64,000 bases of DNA from an uncultured Gammaproteobacteria bacterium (GTDB lineage Bacteria; Patescibacteriota; Patescibacteriia; Patescibacteriales; UBA12465), in NCBI GenBank assembly GCA_964570655.1, contig CAZMYU010000001.1, positions 1,454 through 65,453 of the forward strand. Direction: 5' to 3'. Shown here one piece after another: positions 16,793-57,566 of the stretch. The stretch's first letter is position 1; every line of letters starts with the position of its first letter. A program made the translations under genes and the position numbers. The notes beneath the pieces were generated by a model. That model worked only from the letters and a program-made list of their open reading frames with translations, searched no databases and was not told the origin of the DNA.

Positions 16793-17284
16793 TTAATAGA
16801 CAAAATAATTCCGTTTGAATCCAGGTCGGAGGGTCATCTCTATGTTTTTCAAACAAAGAATTTTGACCCGAGCCACTGGAGCTAGGGCATCGCTATTACT
16901 TACGCCCAATAATCTTTCCTCAAACTTCATTGAATCTTTTTTGAAATCAGATAGCGCAGCGATTTCATTGCCCTGCTCAAAATTTTGCAAAGCTAATTCA
17001 TCAATCTCGTGATTCATATAATCCCCGCTCAGTAAAGATAAGGGGAAAACCACAGAATTACGATTGGACCGCAGATACCAATGACCCAGCTTAATTGGCT
17101 CAGCATAAGCATCAACGAAGCGATTGGAATCACCCATAAATTCCAGGAATTTAACAGCGCACCAATCCTTTTGGATTTCACAGTCAGCGTTAAATCCGGG
17201 ACACACTGCCGTGGGCTTGGGTTTATTCGGCGTACAGGCTAACATCGAAATTAAAAGGAAAATAAAAAATACTAATTTTTTCAT
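16793..17284 (-). CDS. hypothetical lipoprotein
   Basis: 163 aa with a lipobox-like signal MKKLVFFIFLLISMLAC. A terminator hairpin (aaaccccgc..gtggggttt) lies downstream at ~16750..16785. Codon choice differs from neighbouring genes. Confidence 0.65.
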   Translation of the reverse strand: MKKLVFFIFLLISMLACTPNKPKPTAVCPGFNADCEIQKDWCAVKFLEFMGDSNRFVDAYAEPIKLGHWYLRSNRNSVVFPLSLLSGDYMNHEIDELALQNFEQGNEIAALSDFKKDSMKFEERLLGVSNSDALAPVARVKILCLKNIEMTLRPGFKRNYFVY

Positions 17285-30205: not shown

Positions 30206-30808
30206 TTATTCTAAATAACCATCCAAATTAACATCGTATAAAATCTGTTCGGCAATCAAACGATAGCTCAAAATTTCATCGTCATTAAACCACAACTTGA
30301 TTTCTCTTTCGGCTTCAGCCACTTGATCCGAACAATGAATCAAGTTTCGAACTGCTCGATCATCTAGATTAGAAACCTCATAAGAATCTAGGGTAAAATC
30401 ACCGCGCAAGGTTCCGACATCAGAAGTGAGGGGTTCAGTGCCACCAACAATTTTGCGCACCAAATCAACCGCTCGATTACCTTCAATAATCATGGGAATT
30501 ACCGGGCCACAAGTCATAAACTTTACTAAATGGCCAATAATGGCCTGACCATACTCTTTGGCTTCTTTCTCTATTGGTAAGCCTTTTTCTTGACGATTTT
30601 TTATTAAAGCCTCGCCCTTGGAAATAAACCAAGCATCATCTTTGTTGTAATGCTTCCAACATTGTTCATCTTTGGCAATAATCATTTTCATGGCAATAAT
30701 CTTGAGACCCACCTTTTCTAGTCGATTAATAACTTCACCGACCAAAGATCTTTGAATAGCATCTGGTTTTAAAATCACCAGGGTTCTTTCTTTTTTAGGA
30801 TGTAACAT
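30206..30808 (-). CDS. ndk: nucleoside diphosphate kinase (with internal insertion); start moved to M7 of the track ORF
   Basis: ERTLVILKPDAIQR, GTLRGDF and the active-site NLIHCSD. The track ATG at 30826 lies inside the 31-bp repeat, so I prefer MLHPKKERT.. at 30808. Confidence 0.8.
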   Translation of the reverse strand: MLHPKKERTLVILKPDAIQRSLVGEVINRLEKVGLKIIAMKMIIAKDEQCWKHYNKDDAWFISKGEALIKNRQEKGLPIEKEAKEYGQAIIGHLVKFMTCGPVIPMIIEGNRAVDLVRKIVGGTEPLTSDVGTLRGDFTLDSYEVSNLDDRAVRNLIHCSDQVAEAEREIKLWFNDDEILSYRLIAEQILYDVNLDGYLE

Positions 30809-30820
30809 AAAGAATTTATT

Positions 30821-30851
30821 TGTCATCCTGGCGAAGGCCAGGATCCAGGTT
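30821..30851. repeat. 31-bp hairpin repeat, copy 1 of 3
   Basis: tgtcatcctggcgaaggccaggatccaggtt is identical at 50594..50624 and 53474..53504. It contains the 8-bp stem atcctggc/gccaggat with loop gaag. Confidence 0.9.
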
Positions 30852-30862
30852 TTATTAATAAT

Positions 30863-31519
30863 TTATTTATTTAAATTTAACACGACTAACTCCATCTCAT
30901 CACTCGGCAAATCTTTTTTGCTAATTTTTAATTTTTCTTCATTAGTGACTTTTATTCCTAGTTCTTTAATAAATTTATCAACTCCATCTATGTCTTTGAT
31001 CTTGAGTCCTGGAGTCGCATAATGCATGGGGATCACAATTCGTGGTTCAATCTGCGAAATTACTTCCACAGCTTTTTTGGCATCAATAGTATATTTGCCG
31101 CCCACGGGAATAAATAGAATATCAATGCCCGCTAGTCGTTCTAATTGTTTGTTGTCCAAAATATGACCCAGGTCTCCCAAATGACAAAGGGTAATATCAT
31201 CCATTTCAATCCGATAAATAATATTGAGAGGTTTGTCGCTTTTTTCACCGGCCGTATCATGAAAAGACCGGATGCCTTCGATGAGGACATCTTTAATATC
31301 AAATTCGCCGGCACTACTAACGACATAAGGTTTACCTCGAAAAGCCGAAGAATTATTATGATCAAAATGATCATGTGAAATAGTGACAATGTCCGCTTCA
31401 AAATTTGGCAACTTCAAACCGACTTCCGAGCTATACGGATCAGTCACGAGAGTCAACCCATCAGAGTTAGCTTTGTCTTGAATTTTAAAACAAGAATGTC
31501 CTAGCCAAGTAATTATCAT
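30863..31519 (-). CDS. MBL-fold metallo-hydrolase (UPF0173-like)
   Basis: MIITWLGHSCFKIQ, the HDHFDH metal motif, and a length of 218 aa. Confidence 0.8.
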   Translation of the reverse strand: MIITWLGHSCFKIQDKANSDGLTLVTDPYSSEVGLKLPNFEADIVTISHDHFDHNNSSAFRGKPYVVSSAGEFDIKDVLIEGIRSFHDTAGEKSDKPLNIIYRIEMDDITLCHLGDLGHILDNKQLERLAGIDILFIPVGGKYTIDAKKAVEVISQIEPRIVIPMHYATPGLKIKDIDGVDKFIKELGIKVTNEEKLKISKKDLPSDEMELVVLNLNK

Positions 31520-38137: not shown

Positions 38138-39742
<1,605 letters not shown>

Positions 39743-39901
39743 CTAGGGAGATATTACGTTTTGGATCATTGATTTAAATCGTATGGTCGCCCTGACAACA
39801 CACTATATTTGATATAGTCGGTCAGGTGCAAGCTTGATTGCAAAATTAAGCTGGGTCCCGTCATTCGACGGGACTGCGCCTCGCTTCGCGAGGCTTGAAT
39901 T

Positions 39902-40025: not shown

Positions 40026-40529
40026 TTATAAACGCTCCCGTAATCTTTTGAGCTCTTCAATATCTTGACTGGCCTGATGACTTTTAGCAGCCAAATGACC
40101 AAGCTCATCAATAAAATCATTTAAACTAATAGGCGGTACAGAAGAATGCTGGTTATTTTTAATTTCGGCTACCATATCATCCTTTTCCTCCCAATACTCA
40201 GATTTGTCACCTTTTAAATTATAGATCCGCTGTTCAACTTTTTTATAAAGCATAGACTTCTCATCTTCTTTGTCCTGCTCATCATTGCCGACGGTTGCCC
40301 TAATCTTTTCTAATTTTTCTAAAATAGCTTCTATAAAAGCCTGGGTTTTTTCAGAAACCTTAGGCGCCACAAATGAATTCCAAATTCGCTCAGCTAATTC
40401 TGGGCTCGGCTGGGTATCCTTGATATCTTGTTTAATTTTTTCTAAAATCGCTAGCACCTCCGGACTCTCTTGGTGATGTTTTTTGGGGGATTCATTTTTC
40501 GGTCTAAGAAAATTTAAAAAACCCATCAT
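40026..40529 (-). CDS. hypothetical cytoplasmic protein, last gene of the surface operon (start moved to M46 of the track ORF)
   Basis: MMGFLNFLRPKNESPKKHHQ... is helical and charged, with no signal peptide. The track ORF start at 40664 would overlap the upstream gene by 131 nt. Confidence 0.55.
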   Translation of the reverse strand: MMGFLNFLRPKNESPKKHHQESPEVLAILEKIKQDIKDTQPSPELAERIWNSFVAPKVSEKTQAFIEAILEKLEKIRATVGNDEQDKEDEKSMLYKKVEQRIYNLKGDKSEYWEEKDDMVAEIKNNQHSSVPPISLNDFIDELGHLAAKSHQASQDIEELKRLRERL

Positions 40530-40533
40530 AGAA

Positions 40534-41919
40534 TTATTTTTTATTAATTTTATTAATAGCTCCTCGACTCTGCCGATTAATCCTAGCCACAGTCGAACTA
40601 GCTCGGCGAGATTTAGTATTTTTTTGTTGCATAATTGCCAAATACCAACGCCGATTATACACAATGAAAACCAGCAAAACTAGCACCAGTAAAGCAAACA
40701 GTACAATAATATAGAAATTAAAACTATGCAAAAATGATAAGTTAAGCGCTCGGGCCCTAGTCCCCTCGCTTTGACTTACCCCTGAAACTGGTCGATTAAT
40801 TTCAAATTCAGTAGAAGCTGACACAAAATTTCCGGCCACATCAAAGGCTTTGACGAGCATTTGATGTTTGCCGGTTTTTAGGGCTGGGGTTTGATAAACA
40901 GCCAAACCAATGCTTTTGATCTCCTCAGGCTCTCCGCCATCGATTCTGACCTCAAAATGGTCCAAGCCAGACAAAAGATCACAAGCTCCAAAAGCAAAAT
41001 CTCGTTTATAAGCCACAGCTGTTGAACCAGGGCTTTCTTTGATTTCTAAATTAGAAGGCAAGGTGGCATCAATCTTAATAGGATAATAACTGGCCGGCCC
41101 CCAACCTTTTTTGTTTTTAAAACGCAAATGGAAATACCACAAACCATCATCCACCAAAGTAAATTGCTTGCCAGTCCCCGGACTAGTAAACTCACTGCTC
41201 GGGACAGATGAAGGATCATGATCGAGCGACCAAGAAATGCTAGAAACCCCAGCTGGCAAATCCCAAGTGAATTCTGGGTTGTTATTGTTGTACCACAAAT
41301 TCTGATTACCATGACTTGGCGAAGAAATTTCTGGTGCTCTAGGAATAGAATTGATAGCAATTGTCTCATCAACACTAGTTTCGACAATTTTAGGAGCCTC
41401 GGCCTTAATCCCGGTATCAGGAATAATAATAGTCGAGCCACTCAAGCCCTTGAGCACGTTAGTTCCTTGACCATCATTAGCCAAAACCGCCGCTGAATAA
41501 AAACTAATGTTGGCAGATCCAGCGGCAATCACCTTGAATTTGACACTCAAAACTTTGCCGGCCGAACCCTTATAGCCAGGATTAAAAATTATACCTTCAA
41601 AAGTTACGCGACCCGTCTCATTAGAAAAGGATGGATCCTTGACCCACAATTTTATAATACTCCCGGAATTACTAACACTTACTGCTTGCAATTTATCACT
41701 GGAAAAACTAATTTGGCCAGACACGGCATTGATGGCCGTGTCTCCACTATCCACAATCGCATTTACCGTAAAAGTATCACCAATTTTATAAGAAGCCTTG
41801 CCTGGCGATAAATACAAATCAGCCGCCAAAACTTTAGAAGCTGAAAAAACAAAAAAACCAAAAATTAAACTAGTTAATATTAATAATCCTCTTATTTTTG
41901 TCGTTTTTTCTGACGCCAT
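40534..41919 (-). CDS. cohesin-like domain surface protein with Ig-like 'NNNNPxFxW' domain and C-terminal TM anchor
   Basis: Signal MASEKTTKIRGLLILTSLIFGFFVFSASKVLA. Cohesin-type pattern LYLSPGKASYKIGDTFTVNAIV..AINAVSGQISFSSDKLQAVSV..GRVTFEGIIFNPGYKGSAGKVLSVKFKVIAAGSANISF..VLANDGQGTNVL. Then HGNQNLWYNNNNPEFTW..DGLWYFHLRF, and a C-terminal TM helix IIVLFALLVLVLLVFIV plus a basic tail. Confidence 0.75.
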   Translation of the reverse strand: MASEKTTKIRGLLILTSLIFGFFVFSASKVLAADLYLSPGKASYKIGDTFTVNAIVDSGDTAINAVSGQISFSSDKLQAVSVSNSGSIIKLWVKDPSFSNETGRVTFEGIIFNPGYKGSAGKVLSVKFKVIAAGSANISFYSAAVLANDGQGTNVLKGLSGSTIIIPDTGIKAEAPKIVETSVDETIAINSIPRAPEISSPSHGNQNLWYNNNNPEFTWDLPAGVSSISWSLDHDPSSVPSSEFTSPGTGKQFTLVDDGLWYFHLRFKNKKGWGPASYYPIKIDATLPSNLEIKESPGSTAVAYKRDFAFGACDLLSGLDHFEVRIDGGEPEEIKSIGLAVYQTPALKTGKHQMLVKAFDVAGNFVSASTEFEINRPVSGVSQSEGTRARALNLSFLHSFNFYIIVLFALLVLVLLVFIVYNRRWYLAIMQQKNTKSRRASSTVARINRQSRGAINKINKK

Positions 41920-42818
41920 TTTAATAATAAAATTAATAAAACAAATAAAACTCCTCCTAATATTATACACCAAATAAGCACTTTTTTATAATCCACTAAT
42001 TGTCTCTGATTTTCAGTCGGAGCTAGGTAAGCCAAACGCAAATTGCCAGCCCGGTCAATGGCTCGAACATAAACATAACTGCTTAGAGATTGATCAGTTA
42101 AGACATAAGGGCTAGTAACCGGCTCCCAACCTCGAATAGGCATATCCGCTTCTTGAGCAAAAAAATTTTTAGTTTCCAGTATCTCATAAGTAGCCAGACC
42201 CGATCCCTTATCTTGGGTAGCAAAAGCCACAAACCATTTACCCTGATTGACTCCGTCTTCTTTAACCAACTCCAAAGAAAAAGCTTCGGGTCGATCAATA
42301 TCTTTGATGGCTAGTTGCATTGGAGCTCGATTACCCTGATTCTCTTTAGCTATTAAACTCAAGTTAGCGTTTTTGACCAAGACTTCTTGTCCTTGTCCGT
42401 CATTTTTTAAAATTTGCCAATTTTTGGTTTGGCAAAAAATAGCACCGGACTTGATAACAGTAAAATTCAGAGTCAGAACCAGGCCCTGCGAACCGCTATA
42501 ACCGCCGGGAATAATTCCAGAAAGTTTTAGTAGCCCAGAATTATCAAGGCTCGGGCGTTCCAACCATAAATTGATAATTGACGAAGCATCACTAAAATTA
42601 TCCAAACGCAAAGTTTCTTTAGAATATTCCAAACTGCCAGCCAAAGCGTTGATACTTTCATTATTGGTATCCACCAAAACCCGAAACTCCACTTGATCGC
42701 CAACTATTAAATCCGGAGAACTACTTTTGATATTAAATGTCGCGGCCCAGCTTGAACCCGGCCAAACGATTAGAGCTGCTGAGATTATTAATATTAATAA
42801 AAAATTAATTTTCTTCAT
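41892..42818 (-). CDS. cohesin-like domain surface protein with C-terminal TM anchor (start moved to M8)
   Basis: Signal MKKINFLLILIISAALIVWPGSSWA. Cohesin-type pattern FNIKSSSPDLIVGDQVEFRVLV..INALAGSLEYSKETLRL..LKLSGIIPGGYSGSQGLVLTLNFTVIKSGA..ILKNDGQGQEVL. C-terminal TM helix LIWCIILGGVLFVLLILLL followed by KWRQKKRQK. Confidence 0.75.
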   Translation of the reverse strand: MKKINFLLILIISAALIVWPGSSWAATFNIKSSSPDLIVGDQVEFRVLVDTNNESINALAGSLEYSKETLRLDNFSDASSIINLWLERPSLDNSGLLKLSGIIPGGYSGSQGLVLTLNFTVIKSGAIFCQTKNWQILKNDGQGQEVLVKNANLSLIAKENQGNRAPMQLAIKDIDRPEAFSLELVKEDGVNQGKWFVAFATQDKGSGLATYEILETKNFFAQEADMPIRGWEPVTSPYVLTDQSLSSYVYVRAIDRAGNLRLAYLAPTENQRQLVDYKKVLIWCIILGGVLFVLLILLLKWRQKKRQK

Positions 42819-42826
42819 AAATAAAA

Positions 42827-43879
42827 TTAGCCCCGCCAATAAAAGGCCAAAATACTAAAATCTACCAAATCCACCCGACCGTCGCCATTAAAATCATATT
42901 TGACTGGTGGATTTTCTTTTTTATACCAATAAGCTTCAATGGAAAAATCTACCAAATTGACTCGACCATCACCATTCAAATCCGATTTTAATTCGTTGCT
43001 AGGTTTAGCTTCTTTATTTTGACTACCGACCGCAAAAACCATCGATTCACTATACGGACTAATCTCGCCACTGGCCAAAGTCTTAGATTTGGCCTGATGA
43101 TCGCCTACTTCCAAACTAGCCGTATCTAGGTTATAAAAATAAGCCCCATTTTTGTCCGCCGTAGTTTTCAAAAACAATTGCTGATTAGAATTGACTTGAA
43201 TCTCCACTTGAGCCCCTGGAGTACTTTGACCAAAAATTGCCAAATTATCACCCTGTTTAACTTCCGACTTATCTAATTGAATAGTCGGCGGAATAAAAAT
43301 TCCCGTAATATTAACCGTGGCCCCCGAACTAACAAAAACTGGAAAAGTAAAAAGATTAGAGCGTCGATTGGCTGAGTCTTGGCCATAGACCGCAAAATTA
43401 TAACTACCAGTACTGAGATTACCCAAATTAACACTAAAATTAGCGTCTGGGCCAGCCACAGTAGTGACCGCCATTTGACCATCTTTTAAAACCACCACTT
43501 GGCTGAGTGGATAAGCTCGACCCGAAAAAGAAGCATTGGCCATAACTGGCTGAACATAAATTTGATCACCGCCACCGCCACCACCTCCTCCACCACCACT
43601 AACTGGCGGAGTTACTGGAGGAGTCACAACATCAGATTCATTATTGTCCAAAAAAGAAGCGCAACCTGGGTCGGCCGGATAATCCACCAAAGTATCGCCA
43701 TCGTTATCCAAACCATCATGACAAGCTGGAGCCGGAATAATTTCTATTTTAAATCTGGAACCACTAGCCGCCAGCGCATAAGGTCCAGCCAAAATCAAAA
43801 TACCTAAAACCAAAAAAACGAAGAGATTTTTTATAAATTTCCTATTAATGTTTTTAAAATTTATTTGAAAGCTAAACAT
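42827..43879 (-). CDS. secreted protein with DNDGD/Cys N-terminal motif, poly-Gly linker, Ig-like domains and a C-terminal type-I-like dockerin
   Basis: CHDGLDNDGDTLVDYPADPGC and a GGGGGGGGGG linker. The duplicated dockerin EF-hand-like segment reads DLNGDGRVNLVDFSIEAYW ... DFNGDGRVDLVDFSILAFYW. Confidence 0.75.
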   Translation of the reverse strand: MFSFQINFKNINRKFIKNLFVFLVLGILILAGPYALAASGSRFKIEIIPAPACHDGLDNDGDTLVDYPADPGCASFLDNNESDVVTPPVTPPVSGGGGGGGGGGDQIYVQPVMANASFSGRAYPLSQVVVLKDGQMAVTTVAGPDANFSVNLGNLSTGSYNFAVYGQDSANRRSNLFTFPVFVSSGATVNITGIFIPPTIQLDKSEVKQGDNLAIFGQSTPGAQVEIQVNSNQQLFLKTTADKNGAYFYNLDTASLEVGDHQAKSKTLASGEISPYSESMVFAVGSQNKEAKPSNELKSDLNGDGRVNLVDFSIEAYWYKKENPPVKYDFNGDGRVDLVDFSILAFYWRG

Positions 43880-50232: not shown

Positions 50233-50357
50233 TCCTTTGGTCACTTAAATTAGCAACCAAAGAATTAACAATTAAAAATGAAAAATTAAAAATTATTTCC
50301 TAAATCTTTAATTATTAATTATTAATTTTTAACTCCACCGCTTATAGCGGTGGAAAG

Positions 50358-50430
50358 TGGACTTGAGGGGACTCGAACCCCTTACCTCTACAATGCGAAT
50401 GTAGCGCTCTACCAGATGAGCTACAAGCCC
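50358..50430 (-). tRNA. tRNA-Ala (anticodon CGC)
   Basis: Manual fold: acceptor GGGCTTG/CAAGTCC with the G3:U70 Ala identity pair, D arm GCTC..GAGC, anticodon arm CTACA-TTCGCAT-TGTAG, T arm AGGGG-TTCGAGT-CCCCT, no CCA. Confidence 0.92.
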
Positions 50431-50593
50431 TTCATTTCGCGAAGCGAAATAATTAAAAATTAGTAATTAAAGATTGAAAATATCTAAAAACTCTCTAATT
50501 TTTAATTGCTACACTAAACTTATAATAAAAGCTCAGAAAAATCAACCCCGCAGAAGCCGCTTCGCGTCTCGCGGGGCAGGGCCCCCGTCCAAC

Positions 50594-50624
50594 TGTCATC
50601 CTGGCGAAGGCCAGGATCCAGGTT
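50594..50624. repeat. 31-bp hairpin repeat, copy 2 of 3 (intergenic)
   Basis: Identical to 30821..30851 and 53474..53504. Confidence 0.9.
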
Positions 50625-51001
50625 AAAAATTAAAAAGCCTCGAGAATCGTGAGACTCTTGAGGCTTTGAGGGTTTTATAGAATGAACTTTGAAATAAAGT
50701 AATTTTATTTATTTTCGTTTAGTCGAAAATGTTTGTAAATAAAATTATTTTATTTTATTAAGTTTTTTTCGTAATGAACAAATTTCCAAAAAAGTCGACC
50801 ATCTTCGGTAAAAAAATTAACCTTTACCTGCACCATTCCGAGATCCAAAGAAAAACCTCTAATGGTCGACTCTTTGCTGTTTTTACTGGTTTTAATAACC
50901 AACGGCAAGTGCCGTTACAATGATTGTTGTTGAACTTATGTCAAAGTAATTATATTATAGCAATTTGCCCTTAGGCTGTAAAGCCCGCTCAGTGGAAAAC
51001 T

Positions 51002-52073: not shown

Positions 52074-52164
52074 AATTAAAAATTAATAATTAAGAATTAA
52101 AAATTTAAGGAGCCTATTTATTTTACAAAAATAATTTTTAATCTTTCATTTTTAATTATTAATT
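52074..52164. repeat. AT-rich hairpin module directly upstream of ychF
   Basis: aattaaaaattaataattaagaattaaaaattt ... aatttttaatctttcatttttaattattaatt, followed by small hairpins ttgtgc-gaat-gcacaa (52163..52178) and ggcccc-ttaa-ggggcc (52183..52198). Confidence 0.65.
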
Positions 52165-52429: not shown

Positions 52430-52523
52430 CATCCTCCCGTCGATGACGGAAGAATTAAAAATTAATAATTAAAAATTAAAAATTTGATGGTCAGAAATAC
52501 TAATTAAAATTATCAGTTAAACT

Positions 52524-53564
52524 CTAATGAGTCAAGGTGAGATTAGAATTGGCCCGCAGTTTGGCCACCGAAACAAAACCCTTCTTTTTAAATTGAAAAT
52601 ACCCGGCTAGGGCAATCATGGCCGCATTGTCAGTAGTATAGGGCAGAGCTGTCAAATACAAATGACCACCCCTAATTTGATCATGCACCGCGATTTCTAA
52701 ACCTTGACGCAAACTACTATTAGCCGATACTCCACCAGAAAGCAAAATATTTTTGATCTTATATTTTTTAGCTGCCGCAATTGTTTTATAAACCAGAGTC
52801 TCCACAATCGCCGTTTGCAGTTCATAAGCATAATTGCCCAAACGTTTCTGATAATCTTTGTCTTTTTTCAAAGTATAGAGCAAAGCGGTTTTAAGACCCG
52901 AAAAGGAAAAATCAAAATTACCACTCCCAATCATGGGGCGAGGTAATTTTAAACCTGGAAGCCACTCGGTGGCTGTTTTAGAAATCGCTGGACCACCGGG
53001 ATATCCCAAGCCCAACATCTTGGCCCCTTTGTCAAAGCATTCCCCAGCCGCGTCATCTAAGGTCTCGCCAATAATTTTGTAATTAAAATAATCTTTAAGC
53101 AATACGAGATTGGTATGTCCGCCCGAAACCGTGAGGGCTAGCGCCGGAAATTTAATATTGTTTGTTAGAAATGGCGCGGCTAAGTGGCCAGCAATATGAT
53201 TGACTCCCACCACTGGTTTGTTTAGAGCAAAGGCTAAGGCTCGAGCAGTTTCTACTCCACAAATCAGCGAAGTAATAAGTCCGGGGCCAACAGTCACGGC
53301 AATCAAATCAATCTTGGTCATTTTAATTTTGGCAACTTCCAAAGCCTCGTTTAAAACCGGCACCATGTTTAACACATGCTCCCGCGCTGCCACTTCTGGC
53401 ACCACTCCGCCATATTTTTGATGAATACTAATTTGTGATGAGATGACATTAGATAAAACCTTAGGAGGTTTAATGTCATCCTGGCGAAGGCCAGGATCCA
53501 GGTTCAATTTAATTACGGCCACCGCCGTTTCATCACAACTAGTCTCAATACCTAAAATAATCAT
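52524..53564 (-). CDS. tsaD: tRNA N6-adenosine threonylcarbamoyltransferase TsaD (carries an in-frame copy of the 31-bp repeat)
   Basis: GIETSCDETAVAV, YGGVVPEVAAREH, GVNHIAGH, SGGHT, and a length of 346 aa. Confidence 0.95.
   Translation of the reverse strand: MIILGIETSCDETAVAVIKLNLDPGLRQDDIKPPKVLSNVISSQISIHQKYGGVVPEVAAREHVLNMVPVLNEALEVAKIKMTKIDLIAVTVGPGLITSLICGVETARALAFALNKPVVGVNHIAGHLAAPFLTNNIKFPALALTVSGGHTNLVLLKDYFNYKIIGETLDDAAGECFDKGAKMLGLGYPGGPAISKTATEWLPGLKLPRPMIGSGNFDFSFSGLKTALLYTLKKDKDYQKRLGNYAYELQTAIVETLVYKTIAAAKKYKIKNILLSGGVSANSSLRQGLEIAVHDQIRGGHLYLTALPYTTDNAAMIALAGYFQFKKKGFVSVAKLRANSNLTLTH
53474..53504. repeat. 31-bp hairpin repeat, copy 3 of 3, inside the tsaD coding sequence
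   Basis: The reverse complement aac ctg gat cct ggc ctt cgc cag gat gac a is read in the tsaD frame as NLDPGLRQDD. Confidence 0.9.
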
Positions 53565-53602: not shown

Positions 53603-53684
53603 CCTGGGGTCAGACCCCAATTTCTAACAAGCATCTAAAAATGCCAACAAAATAGTGAAAAAATACCTGGGGTCTGACCCCATT
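53603..53684. repeat. pair of GGGGTC-N-GACCCC palindromes 63 bp apart
   Basis: cctggggtcagaccccaa (core 53606..53618) and cctggggtctgaccccat (core 53669..53681). Confidence 0.85.
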
Positions 53685-54917: not shown

Positions 54918-54940
54918 ATGGGGTCTGACCCCATTTTTTG
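54918..54940 (+). terminator. rho-independent terminator formed by a third GGGGTCTGACCCC palindrome
   Basis: atggggtctgaccccat followed by tttttg, starting 1 nt after the pilin stop codon. Confidence 0.75.
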
Positions 54941-56298: not shown

Positions 56299-56748
56299 TT
56301 TATTTTGCTTCGCAAAATAATGAAAAATTAATAATTAAGAATTAATTTATCAAAAAATGCCGGTTAGTGGCAATAATCACATTGTATATTAAATTGATAA
56401 TTTGTCAACCAATAAAAAAGGCTCTTCTGGAGAGAATAAGAGCCCTTAACTTACGAGCCTCTTAGTTTCTATCGAGGCTTATTGGTGAAGGTTTAGGCGA
56501 TGAGCTTAATTGTTTAAGACTCATAGAATTCGGGAGTCAACGAGCTTCTCCAGTAACTATCATTTTAGTTGATCCCACAACCTTTGCCAGATTTAAAGTA
56601 CGAAACTTTGGCCTGGAAAATTTGGCCTGCTCCCTTGGGGGGAATCACTTGTGTTTTATTCCTTCTAATTAAATTATAGCACCAAAATTCAAAAAATAAA
56701 AACCCCTGCTTATTTGACTAAGCAGGGTGCTAAATTTAAAAATAACTG

Positions 56749-57412: not shown

Positions 57413-57490
57413 CTGGGGTCAGACCCCAGGGAAATTTTATTAAAAAGTAAGGCGTTTTTTAATAGCGCCAAAAATCTGGGGTCAGACCCC
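57413..57490. repeat. second pair of GGGGTCAGACCCC palindromes, again 63 bp apart
   Basis: ctggggtcagaccccag (core 57415..57427) and ctggggtcagacccc (core 57478..57490), in a divergent intergenic region. Confidence 0.85.
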
Positions 57491-57566
57491 AAATCCGTTT
57501 TGGCAAAAAGGCCAAAATGTGCTATTCTGATAATACATATTAACTAATAAACTAATTTTAAAATCT

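Follow-up and report, generated by a model that had tools for sequence, protein, structure and literature searches.

Three copies of a probable CGTC-1 REP element, one of them translated within tsaD, in an apparent CPR bacterium

Introduction

The tsaD gene of an apparent CPR bacterium contains 31 bp that recur without a single change at two other places in the same 64-kb stretch of DNA (the window, positions 1-64000). The question raised by this locus is what kind of sequence the 31 bp represent and how they came to be translated inside a core tRNA-modification enzyme. The initial annotation had described a 31-bp hairpin inserted in frame, had likened it to the palindromic elements of Rickettsia and knew of no such element in CPR genomes.

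Short tagged hairpins of the CGTC type were catalogued by Di Nocera, De Gregorio and Rocco in 2013 (BMC Genomics 14:522, PMC3733652). CGTC-1 REPs carry a CGTC tag (often TGTC, with CCTC also accepted), a 4-nt loop and a tail close to CCA, and the stems of CGTC families 1 and 2 are 8 bp long and nearly always start with A-T (PMC3733652). The published families consist mostly of head-to-head dimers and range from fewer than 20 units to thousands (PMC3733652). The catalogue covers five phyla, namely Proteobacteria, Chlorobi, Bacteroidetes, Spirochaetes and Thermotogae, and holds no CPR (PMC3733652). CGTC-1 takes in Rickettsia RPE-6 and Neisseria dRS3, and RPE-4 (Ogata et al.) belongs to CGTC-4 (PMC3733652). 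Intragenic units occur in several species, and the peptides encoded by intragenic CGTC-1 units include LDSRFRGND, LDPRLRGG, MDPSLRWGD, VIPAKAGI, SFPRKRES and RHPGLDPGSR (supplementary table, PMC3733652). CGTC elements "apparently lack a dedicated transposase", and the mobilising agent is explicitly named there as an open question (PMC3733652).

Results

Three identical copies with sharp borders

As claimed in the initial annotation, TGTCATCCTGGCGAAGGCCAGGATCCAGGTT has three exact matches in the 64-kb window, all on the + strand (Table 1). The chance expectation is 0, with no match in any of 100 dinucleotide-preserving shuffles. No fourth match was found in the window when up to 3 mismatches were permitted, and neither a Hamming scan of up to 11 mismatches nor a relaxed tag/stem scan found degenerate copies there. 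When the three sites were aligned together with 100 bp of flanking sequence, the borders of the 31-mer were the exact limits of identity: on both sides the directly adjacent bases of the three sites all differ, and the flanks are mutually unrelated. Distances of about 20 kb and 2.9 kb, with intervening genes, separate the copies, and all three are oriented alike with respect to local transcription, which is on the minus strand. The GC content of the 31-mer is 58%, compared with 39.5% for the window.

The 31-mer forms a perfectly paired 8-bp stem closed by a 4-nt loop, with a folding energy of -14.6 kcal/mol for the + strand and -13.9 kcal/mol for the - strand. A hairpin is thus present as described, but the hairpin proper is this stem and loop and not the full 31 bp. 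Five of the six reading frames are open, and translation by frame gives NLDPGLRQDD, VILAKARIQV, SSWRRPGSR and CHPGEGQDPG.

A weak match at 39848-39878 was rejected as a degenerate copy, being a different, terminator-like hairpin; the 14-mer that it shares with position 17083 lies there in coding DNA without a hairpin. No Rfam family covers the 31-mer, whether the whole window is scanned at gathering thresholds or the surroundings of copy 2 are searched by E-value. Of the 16 4-kb bins of the window, 15 have a negative GC skew, and the majority of genes run on the minus strand, which makes the + strand the C-rich one; the TGTC-tag strand of all three copies lies on it, a number of copies too small to interpret.

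Table 1. Positions of the REP copies, their parts and neighbours, and other features in the window
Feature	Position	Strand	Remarks
ndk	30206-30826	-	neighbour of copy 1
REP copy 1	30821-30851	+	fills most of the short spacer between ndk and the MBL-fold gene, which are co-directional
MBL-fold gene	30863-31519	-	neighbour of copy 1
16S rRNA	38138-39742		1605 nt; model 1533 nt
AT-rich segment in 16S	38231-38318		about 88 nt
AT-rich repeat, further site	52074-52157
AT-rich repeat, further site	52453-52478
AT-rich repeat, further site	56323-56345
Three overlapping ORFs	40026-42839	-	TTG starts; 212, 479 and 315 aa; directly downstream of 16S
tRNA-Ala	50357-50430	-	copy 2 upstream of it and of tRNA-Pro
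GC-rich hairpin with T-run	about 50543-50590	-	second hairpin, on the other side of copy 2
REP copy 2	50594-50624	+	intergenic
Terminator-like hairpin with T-run	50632-50665	-	copy 2 directly after it
Candidate ncRNA	50626-50982	-	unannotated; copy 2 just 3' of its terminator
tsaD	52524-53564	-	intact, 346 aa
REP copy 3	53474-53504	+	inside tsaD; exact match, hairpin, strict CGTC-pattern scan and translation
Copy 3, tag TGTC	53474-53477	+	same relative position in the other two copies
Copy 3, first stem arm ATCCTGGC	53478-53485	+
Copy 3, loop GAAG	53486-53489	+
Copy 3, second stem arm GCCAGGAT	53490-53497	+
Copy 3, tail CCA	53498-53500	+
Copy 3, additional GGTT	53501-53504	+	common to all three copies
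Palindrome TGGGGTCWGACCCCA, first copy	53605-53619
Palindrome TGGGGTCWGACCCCA, second copy	53668-53682
Palindrome TGGGGTCWGACCCCA, third copy	54919-54933
Palindrome TGGGGTCWGACCCCA, fourth copy	57414-57428
Palindrome TGGGGTCWGACCCCA, fifth copy	57477-57491

The tsaD gene remains intact with a lengthened loop

The reading frame that holds copy 3 encodes TsaD: it carries the Pfam TsaD domain, and its top PDB matches are TsaD chains (E = 3e-86). Read on the minus strand, copy 3 is AAC CTG GAT CCT GGC CTT CGC CAG GAT GAC A, corresponding to nt 61-91 of the coding sequence; it encodes residues N21-D30, the peptide NLDPGLRQDD that had been predicted, and the first base of the I31 codon. The closest TsaD proteins are at most 63% identical, and most of the top matches belong to MAGs with a Candidatus or Patescibacteria label. 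The apparent CPR origin of the window is drawn from these labels and from synteny with such genomes. The peptide is missing in all of the 119 closest homologues, so that no orthologue among them shares it, and the extra loop is lineage-specific. The stretch from SCDET to SSQI is 28 aa long here and 19-23 aa long in 108 measured close homologues, and at the position of the insert the solved TsaD chains 8iey and 6nak (Aquifex and Thermotoga) have a gap of 12 residues. The excess is therefore 5-9 aa relative to close homologues and 12 aa relative to solved structures.

An AlphaFold2 model of TsaD, built from a 60-sequence alignment, had a mean pLDDT of 92.1 and superposed on TsaD and TsaD-TsaB structures with TM scores of 0.87-0.92. 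In this model residues 20-34 connect strands 12-19 and 35-43, and the REP-encoded residues 21-30 are predicted to lie within this loop; the block 21-30 has the lowest internal confidence of the model (average pLDDT 73). All 77 columns that are invariant among the 60 homologues are kept, including H123, H127 and D312, which we take to be the metal-binding His-His-Asp. The tsaD gene, which is of an essential type, is intact and, according to the model, the extra residues lengthen a beta-hairpin turn.

The initial annotation had the 31 bp themselves inserted in frame. The frame is indeed intact, but 31 is not a multiple of 3, which counts against a simple insertion: insertion of the shared 31-mer alone cannot give the in-frame state. 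Deletion of the 31-mer from tsaD breaks the frame, so that either 2 (or 5, 8 and so on) further bases were gained in the event or one was lost. Direct repeats were found at two sites, with TTATT flanking copy 1 and ATTAAA flanking a 33-nt stretch in tsaD. Copy 2 has no comparable direct repeat, and since the three sites show no consistent target duplication, none is claimed.

The surroundings of copies 1 and 2

Copy 1 provides the CAT from which the first in-frame ATG of the ndk reading frame is read, and the true ndk start may be Met7 instead. Beside copy 2, the minus-strand region of the candidate ncRNA contains a strong promoter-like site, TTTACA-17-TATAAT with TG (11 of 12 matches), after which about 300 nt have an unusually stable predicted structure (z = -6.6), followed by a terminator hairpin and T-run. 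Rfam has no match for this candidate.

The repeat has the anatomy of a CGTC-1 REP

All three copies have an unpaired 5' TGTC, the stem ATCCTGGC / GCCAGGAT is perfectly paired over 8 bp with an A-T start, the loop is the 4-nt GAAG, and an unpaired CCA forms the tail. Three copies were counted, a number that covers the 64-kb window out of a contig of 131.6 kb. The listed CGTC-1 peptides have their equivalents, frame by frame, in the translations of the element. The likeness to Rickettsia palindromic elements that had been proposed holds at the level of the family, with a fit to CGTC-1, which includes RPE-6, on all four structural features. Head-to-head dimers, which are typical and not strictly defining of CGTC-1, were not found: the three copies are singletons on one strand. 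No transposase domain was detected in the 40 window ORFs scanned against Pfam, an assessment that covers the ORFs with a Pfam hit; the result is consistent with a CGTC family that lacks a dedicated transposase. The element thus belongs to the same superfamily as Rickettsia RPE-6 and is not a new kind of element, and the novelty lies in the host lineage, an apparent CPR bacterium, and in the target gene.

Relatives in other genomes

The 20-nt core ATCCTGGCGAAGGCCAGGAT was scanned against genome contigs, with one genome per species and with the tag and tail excluded from the query. The core was found in at least 98 genome loci, mostly from Alpha-, Beta- and Gammaproteobacteria, and the repeat is accordingly not without relatives. 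Among the matches listed there were a few Bacteroidota and Thermodesulfobacteriota and one Parcubacteria MAG (L039); the source genome of the window is absent from them. Among the same matches, 103 copies have readable flanks: CGTC or TGTC stands directly 5' of the core in 89 and CCA directly 3' of it in 88, and a GTC-ending tag and a CCA tail occur together in 85. The exact 29-mer had no hits in JGI metagenome contigs, which weighs against the reading proposed below. The 20-nt core had none in viral contigs.

A longer repeat of about 75 bp with the same hairpin as the core (...CACCCAGGTTGTC-hairpin-CCACGTTTGTTGTTTTTCAACAGGT) was seen in two Alphaproteobacteria MAGs, at L002, L013, L025 and other loci of PL25a_bin.159 and at L003 and L056 of CBDDPY010000002.1. 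The copies of this longer repeat number in the dozens, and many stand at the ends of contigs. In Alphaproteobacteria MAGs, 19 copies are one position off the window 31-mer.

About 21 kb around tsaD of each of eight homologues (158.6 kb in total) were scanned with a strict pattern consisting of the tag, an AT-initial stem of 8 or 9 bp and a loop of 4 or 5 nt. Four perfect CGTC REPs were found, in three of the eight loci; by our own arithmetic the strict pattern is expected by chance at the order of 1e-5 per 21 kb. L099 contains TGTC-ATTCCCGC-GCAG-GCGGGAAT-CCA and CGTC-ATCCCGGG-CTTGA-CCCGGGAT-CCA, L100 contains TGTC-ATTCCGGG-CTTGA-CCCGGAAT-CCA, and the element of L101 is identical to the first one of L099. 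These two identical REPs lie in the same trpS-gdh spacer of two CPR genomes (L099 17245-17330, L101 12675-12755). There this REP, read as TGG-ATTCCCGC-CTGC-GCGGGAAT-GACA, is nested in an outer inverted repeat, TGTCATTGCGAG...CTCGCAATGACA. Either the site is a conserved one or the REP has entered a different tagged palindrome. The tsaD-ychF-uvrA-like synteny of the window is shared by four loci (L103-L106), and the strict scan found no CGTC REP near tsaD in any of them.

These scans show that CGTC REPs occur sporadically in CPR genomes (L039, L099, L100 and L101). A full-text literature search found no description of REPs in Patescibacteria/CPR, and the RepRanger survey (2025) covers major phyla only. 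As the initial annotation had supposed, the occurrence of CGTC REPs in CPR appears to be undescribed.

Other repeats and reading frames in the window

Intergenic DNA upstream of ychF contains a near-identical counterpart of the AT-rich segment in the 16S rRNA gene, and the motif AATTAAAAATTAATAATTAAGAATTAA is found both in this segment and in the regions upstream of tRNA-Cys and tRNA-Glu. The segment has the look of an intergenic AT-rich repeat that was inserted into a variable helix of 16S. A second palindrome, TGGGGTCWGACCCCA, unrelated to the REP, has five copies within 4 kb (0 expected), placed in the divergent region that separates tsaD from a pilin-like gene, past the stop codon of the pilin-like gene and in one more divergent spacer; it may act as a terminator in both directions or as an operator-like site. 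The three overlapping ORFs downstream of the 16S gene have no Pfam match; they may be spurious, or may represent a large gene that is either novel or frameshifted.

Discussion

Comparison with known systems

The 31-mer is very probably a CGTC-1 REP that was copied to at least three places here and whose tsaD copy is tolerated in frame at a hairpin turn. It resembles CGTC-1 REPs in tag, stem, loop and tail, in the lack of a flanking transposase gene and in having an in-frame intragenic copy, and its peptides are of the LDxRxRxxD, VIPAKAGI and SFPRKRES type known from intragenic units (PMC3733652). Its own features are the stem ATCCTGGC, the loop GAAG and the four additional shared bases GGTT. 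Unlike the published CGTC-1 hosts, its host appears to belong to CPR/Patescibacteria, and unlike the published families, which are mostly head-to-head dimers, it occurs as three singletons in one orientation, which counts against the assignment.

As with the Rickettsia RPEs, of which RPE-6 is also CGTC-1, a short palindrome sits in frame in a gene that probably stays functional; the reading frame of tsaD is intact, and the model places the palindrome in a loop. In Rickettsia, obligate intracellular Alphaproteobacteria, dozens of genes are affected, as against one gene in 64 kb in the window. Classical RPE-1 elements are much longer than the window element. The tag-stem-loop-stem-tail layout is also that of the Neisseria dRS3/NIME repeats (ATTCCC-N8-GGGAAT), likewise of the CGTC-1 class, but the stem sequence of dRS3 differs and dRS3 clusters in mosaic intergenic arrays. 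dRS3 repeats are integration targets of filamentous prophages. Neither repeat arrays nor a prophage were found in the window, unlike in the case of dRS3.

GTAG REPs and REPINs are also short tagged hairpins of similar size that are mostly extragenic and presumed to move as single-stranded hairpins. They differ from the window element in their association with RAYTs, which are Y1 HUH transposases, and in their tag. A GTAG REP or REPIN was ruled out by the TGTC tag and by the lack of a Y1 transposase in the window, where no RAYT or Y1_Tnp domain was detected among the 40 ORFs scanned against Pfam; no RAYT association is reported in the literature for CGTC elements. A MITE (70-300 bp, with terminal inverted repeats and a target-site duplication) was ruled out, the shared unit being exactly 31 bp without a consistent direct repeat. 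A CRISPR repeat was excluded by the distances between the copies, the genes that separate them and the absence of a regular array, and an att site was considered and rejected.

Proposed origin of the tsaD copy

Copies 1 and 2 lie at places usual for REPs, between co-transcribed genes and just 3' of a terminator, respectively, and copy 3 would have landed in the 5' part of tsaD. The tsaD copy probably arose by insertion, as judged against relatives whose best TsaD identity is 63% and whose DNA around the loop does not align base by base. It would be tolerated because translation stays in register across the final junctions and five of the six frames of the element are open, and the core of the enzyme would be undisturbed because the added residues extend a beta-hairpin turn of already variable length; the insert is therefore likely to be neutral for TsaD function. 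The insertion was probably recent, because all 31 positions are identical even in a loop that is probably unconstrained, and because the element is GC-rich in an AT-richer genome. By analogy with the GTAG REPs mobilised by RAYTs, the CGTC element may be copied through a single-stranded DNA hairpin that would be recognised by an enzyme acting in trans.

Alternative explanations

A functional cis element, as opposed to a selfish or neutral repeat, has several of these observations in its favour. The hairpin could be a binding site or an RNA structure for a conserved host protein, or a stabiliser or attenuator at mRNA 3' ends, with the tsaD copy kept for the modulation of expression; it is stable at about -14 kcal/mol, the three copies share one orientation relative to transcription, its sequence as well as its structure is conserved across phyla, two CPR genomes hold the same REP in the trpS-gdh spacer, and REPs are reported to influence termination and mRNA stability (PMC3733652). 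However, one orientation for three copies is expected in 1 of 4 cases by chance, and a regulatory hairpin need not be translated in frame within a protein loop. Moreover, the syntenic relatives do without such an element near tsaD, and the survey itself argues against a common general function from family sizes that vary 50-fold and from the many species without elements (PMC3733652). We regard a regulatory role as unlikely, and a translated copy can be explained without one.

It is also improbable that the 31-mer was acquired horizontally as a fragment of the approximately 75-bp alphaproteobacterial composite repeat, of which it would be the core, and then spread in this genome. The repeats of PL25a_bin.159 (TGTC...CCACGTT) and CBDDPY (CGTC...CCAGGTT) each agree with the 31-mer at 30 of 31 positions, including GTT past the tail. 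However, identity in the core follows from the design of the search, for which the 20-nt core was the key, and the three extra bases that agree do so in one or two of about 25 independent lineages, which is compatible with chance. No alphaproteobacterial flanking sequence was found in the window.

An artefact of assembly or binning, in which a proteobacterial sequence of k-mer size was wrongly threaded into a CPR contig, is very improbable. The length of 31 is a common de Bruijn k, and the 19 alphaproteobacterial copies noted above differ from the 31-mer at a single position. However, the two flanks of each copy are contiguous, AT-rich and from the same genes, and the tsaD frame continues across the element with conserved residues on either side. 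A chimeric join would alter the flanking genome and not insert 31 bp, and CGTC REPs are also found in CPR assemblies from independent projects.

That the TsaD loop is ancestral or an ordinary expansion, its identity with the intergenic copies being secondary (for example by gene conversion from the gene), is scarcely credible: the loop does vary between 19 and 23 aa among homologues, but the homologue alignment, in which the peptide is found nowhere, and the family anatomy contradict it, since a perfect palindrome with the tag and tail of a widespread family occurs in unrelated phyla and in non-coding DNA and has a GC content far from that of the window.

Implications

The assignment of the 31-mer to CGTC-1 extends the CGTC REP superfamily to CPR/Patescibacteria and adds a clear case in which a core tRNA-modification enzyme contains an in-frame, translated REP, a situation that resembles Rickettsia, which also has a reduced genome. 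For annotation, short GC-rich hairpin insertions are to be expected in CPR proteins and should not be taken for frameshifts or lineage-specific functional loops.

A further step, which we consider unlikely, would be that CGTC REPs are now or were recently mobile in a CPR bacterium whose gene set is very small and includes no recognisable transposase. If this were true, the spread of CGTC REPs would rely on a housekeeping enzyme or on an enzyme from a host or phage, such a genome would offer a very short list of candidates for the mobilising agent, and the match of 30 of 31 positions with an alphaproteobacterial repeat might reflect DNA exchange between symbiont and host. For a search for the agent that mobilises CGTC REPs, a genome with identical copies and roughly a thousand genes would be favourable. 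The finding is valuable mainly for drawing attention to CGTC REPs in minimal genomes, in which it might be less difficult to identify what mobilises them.
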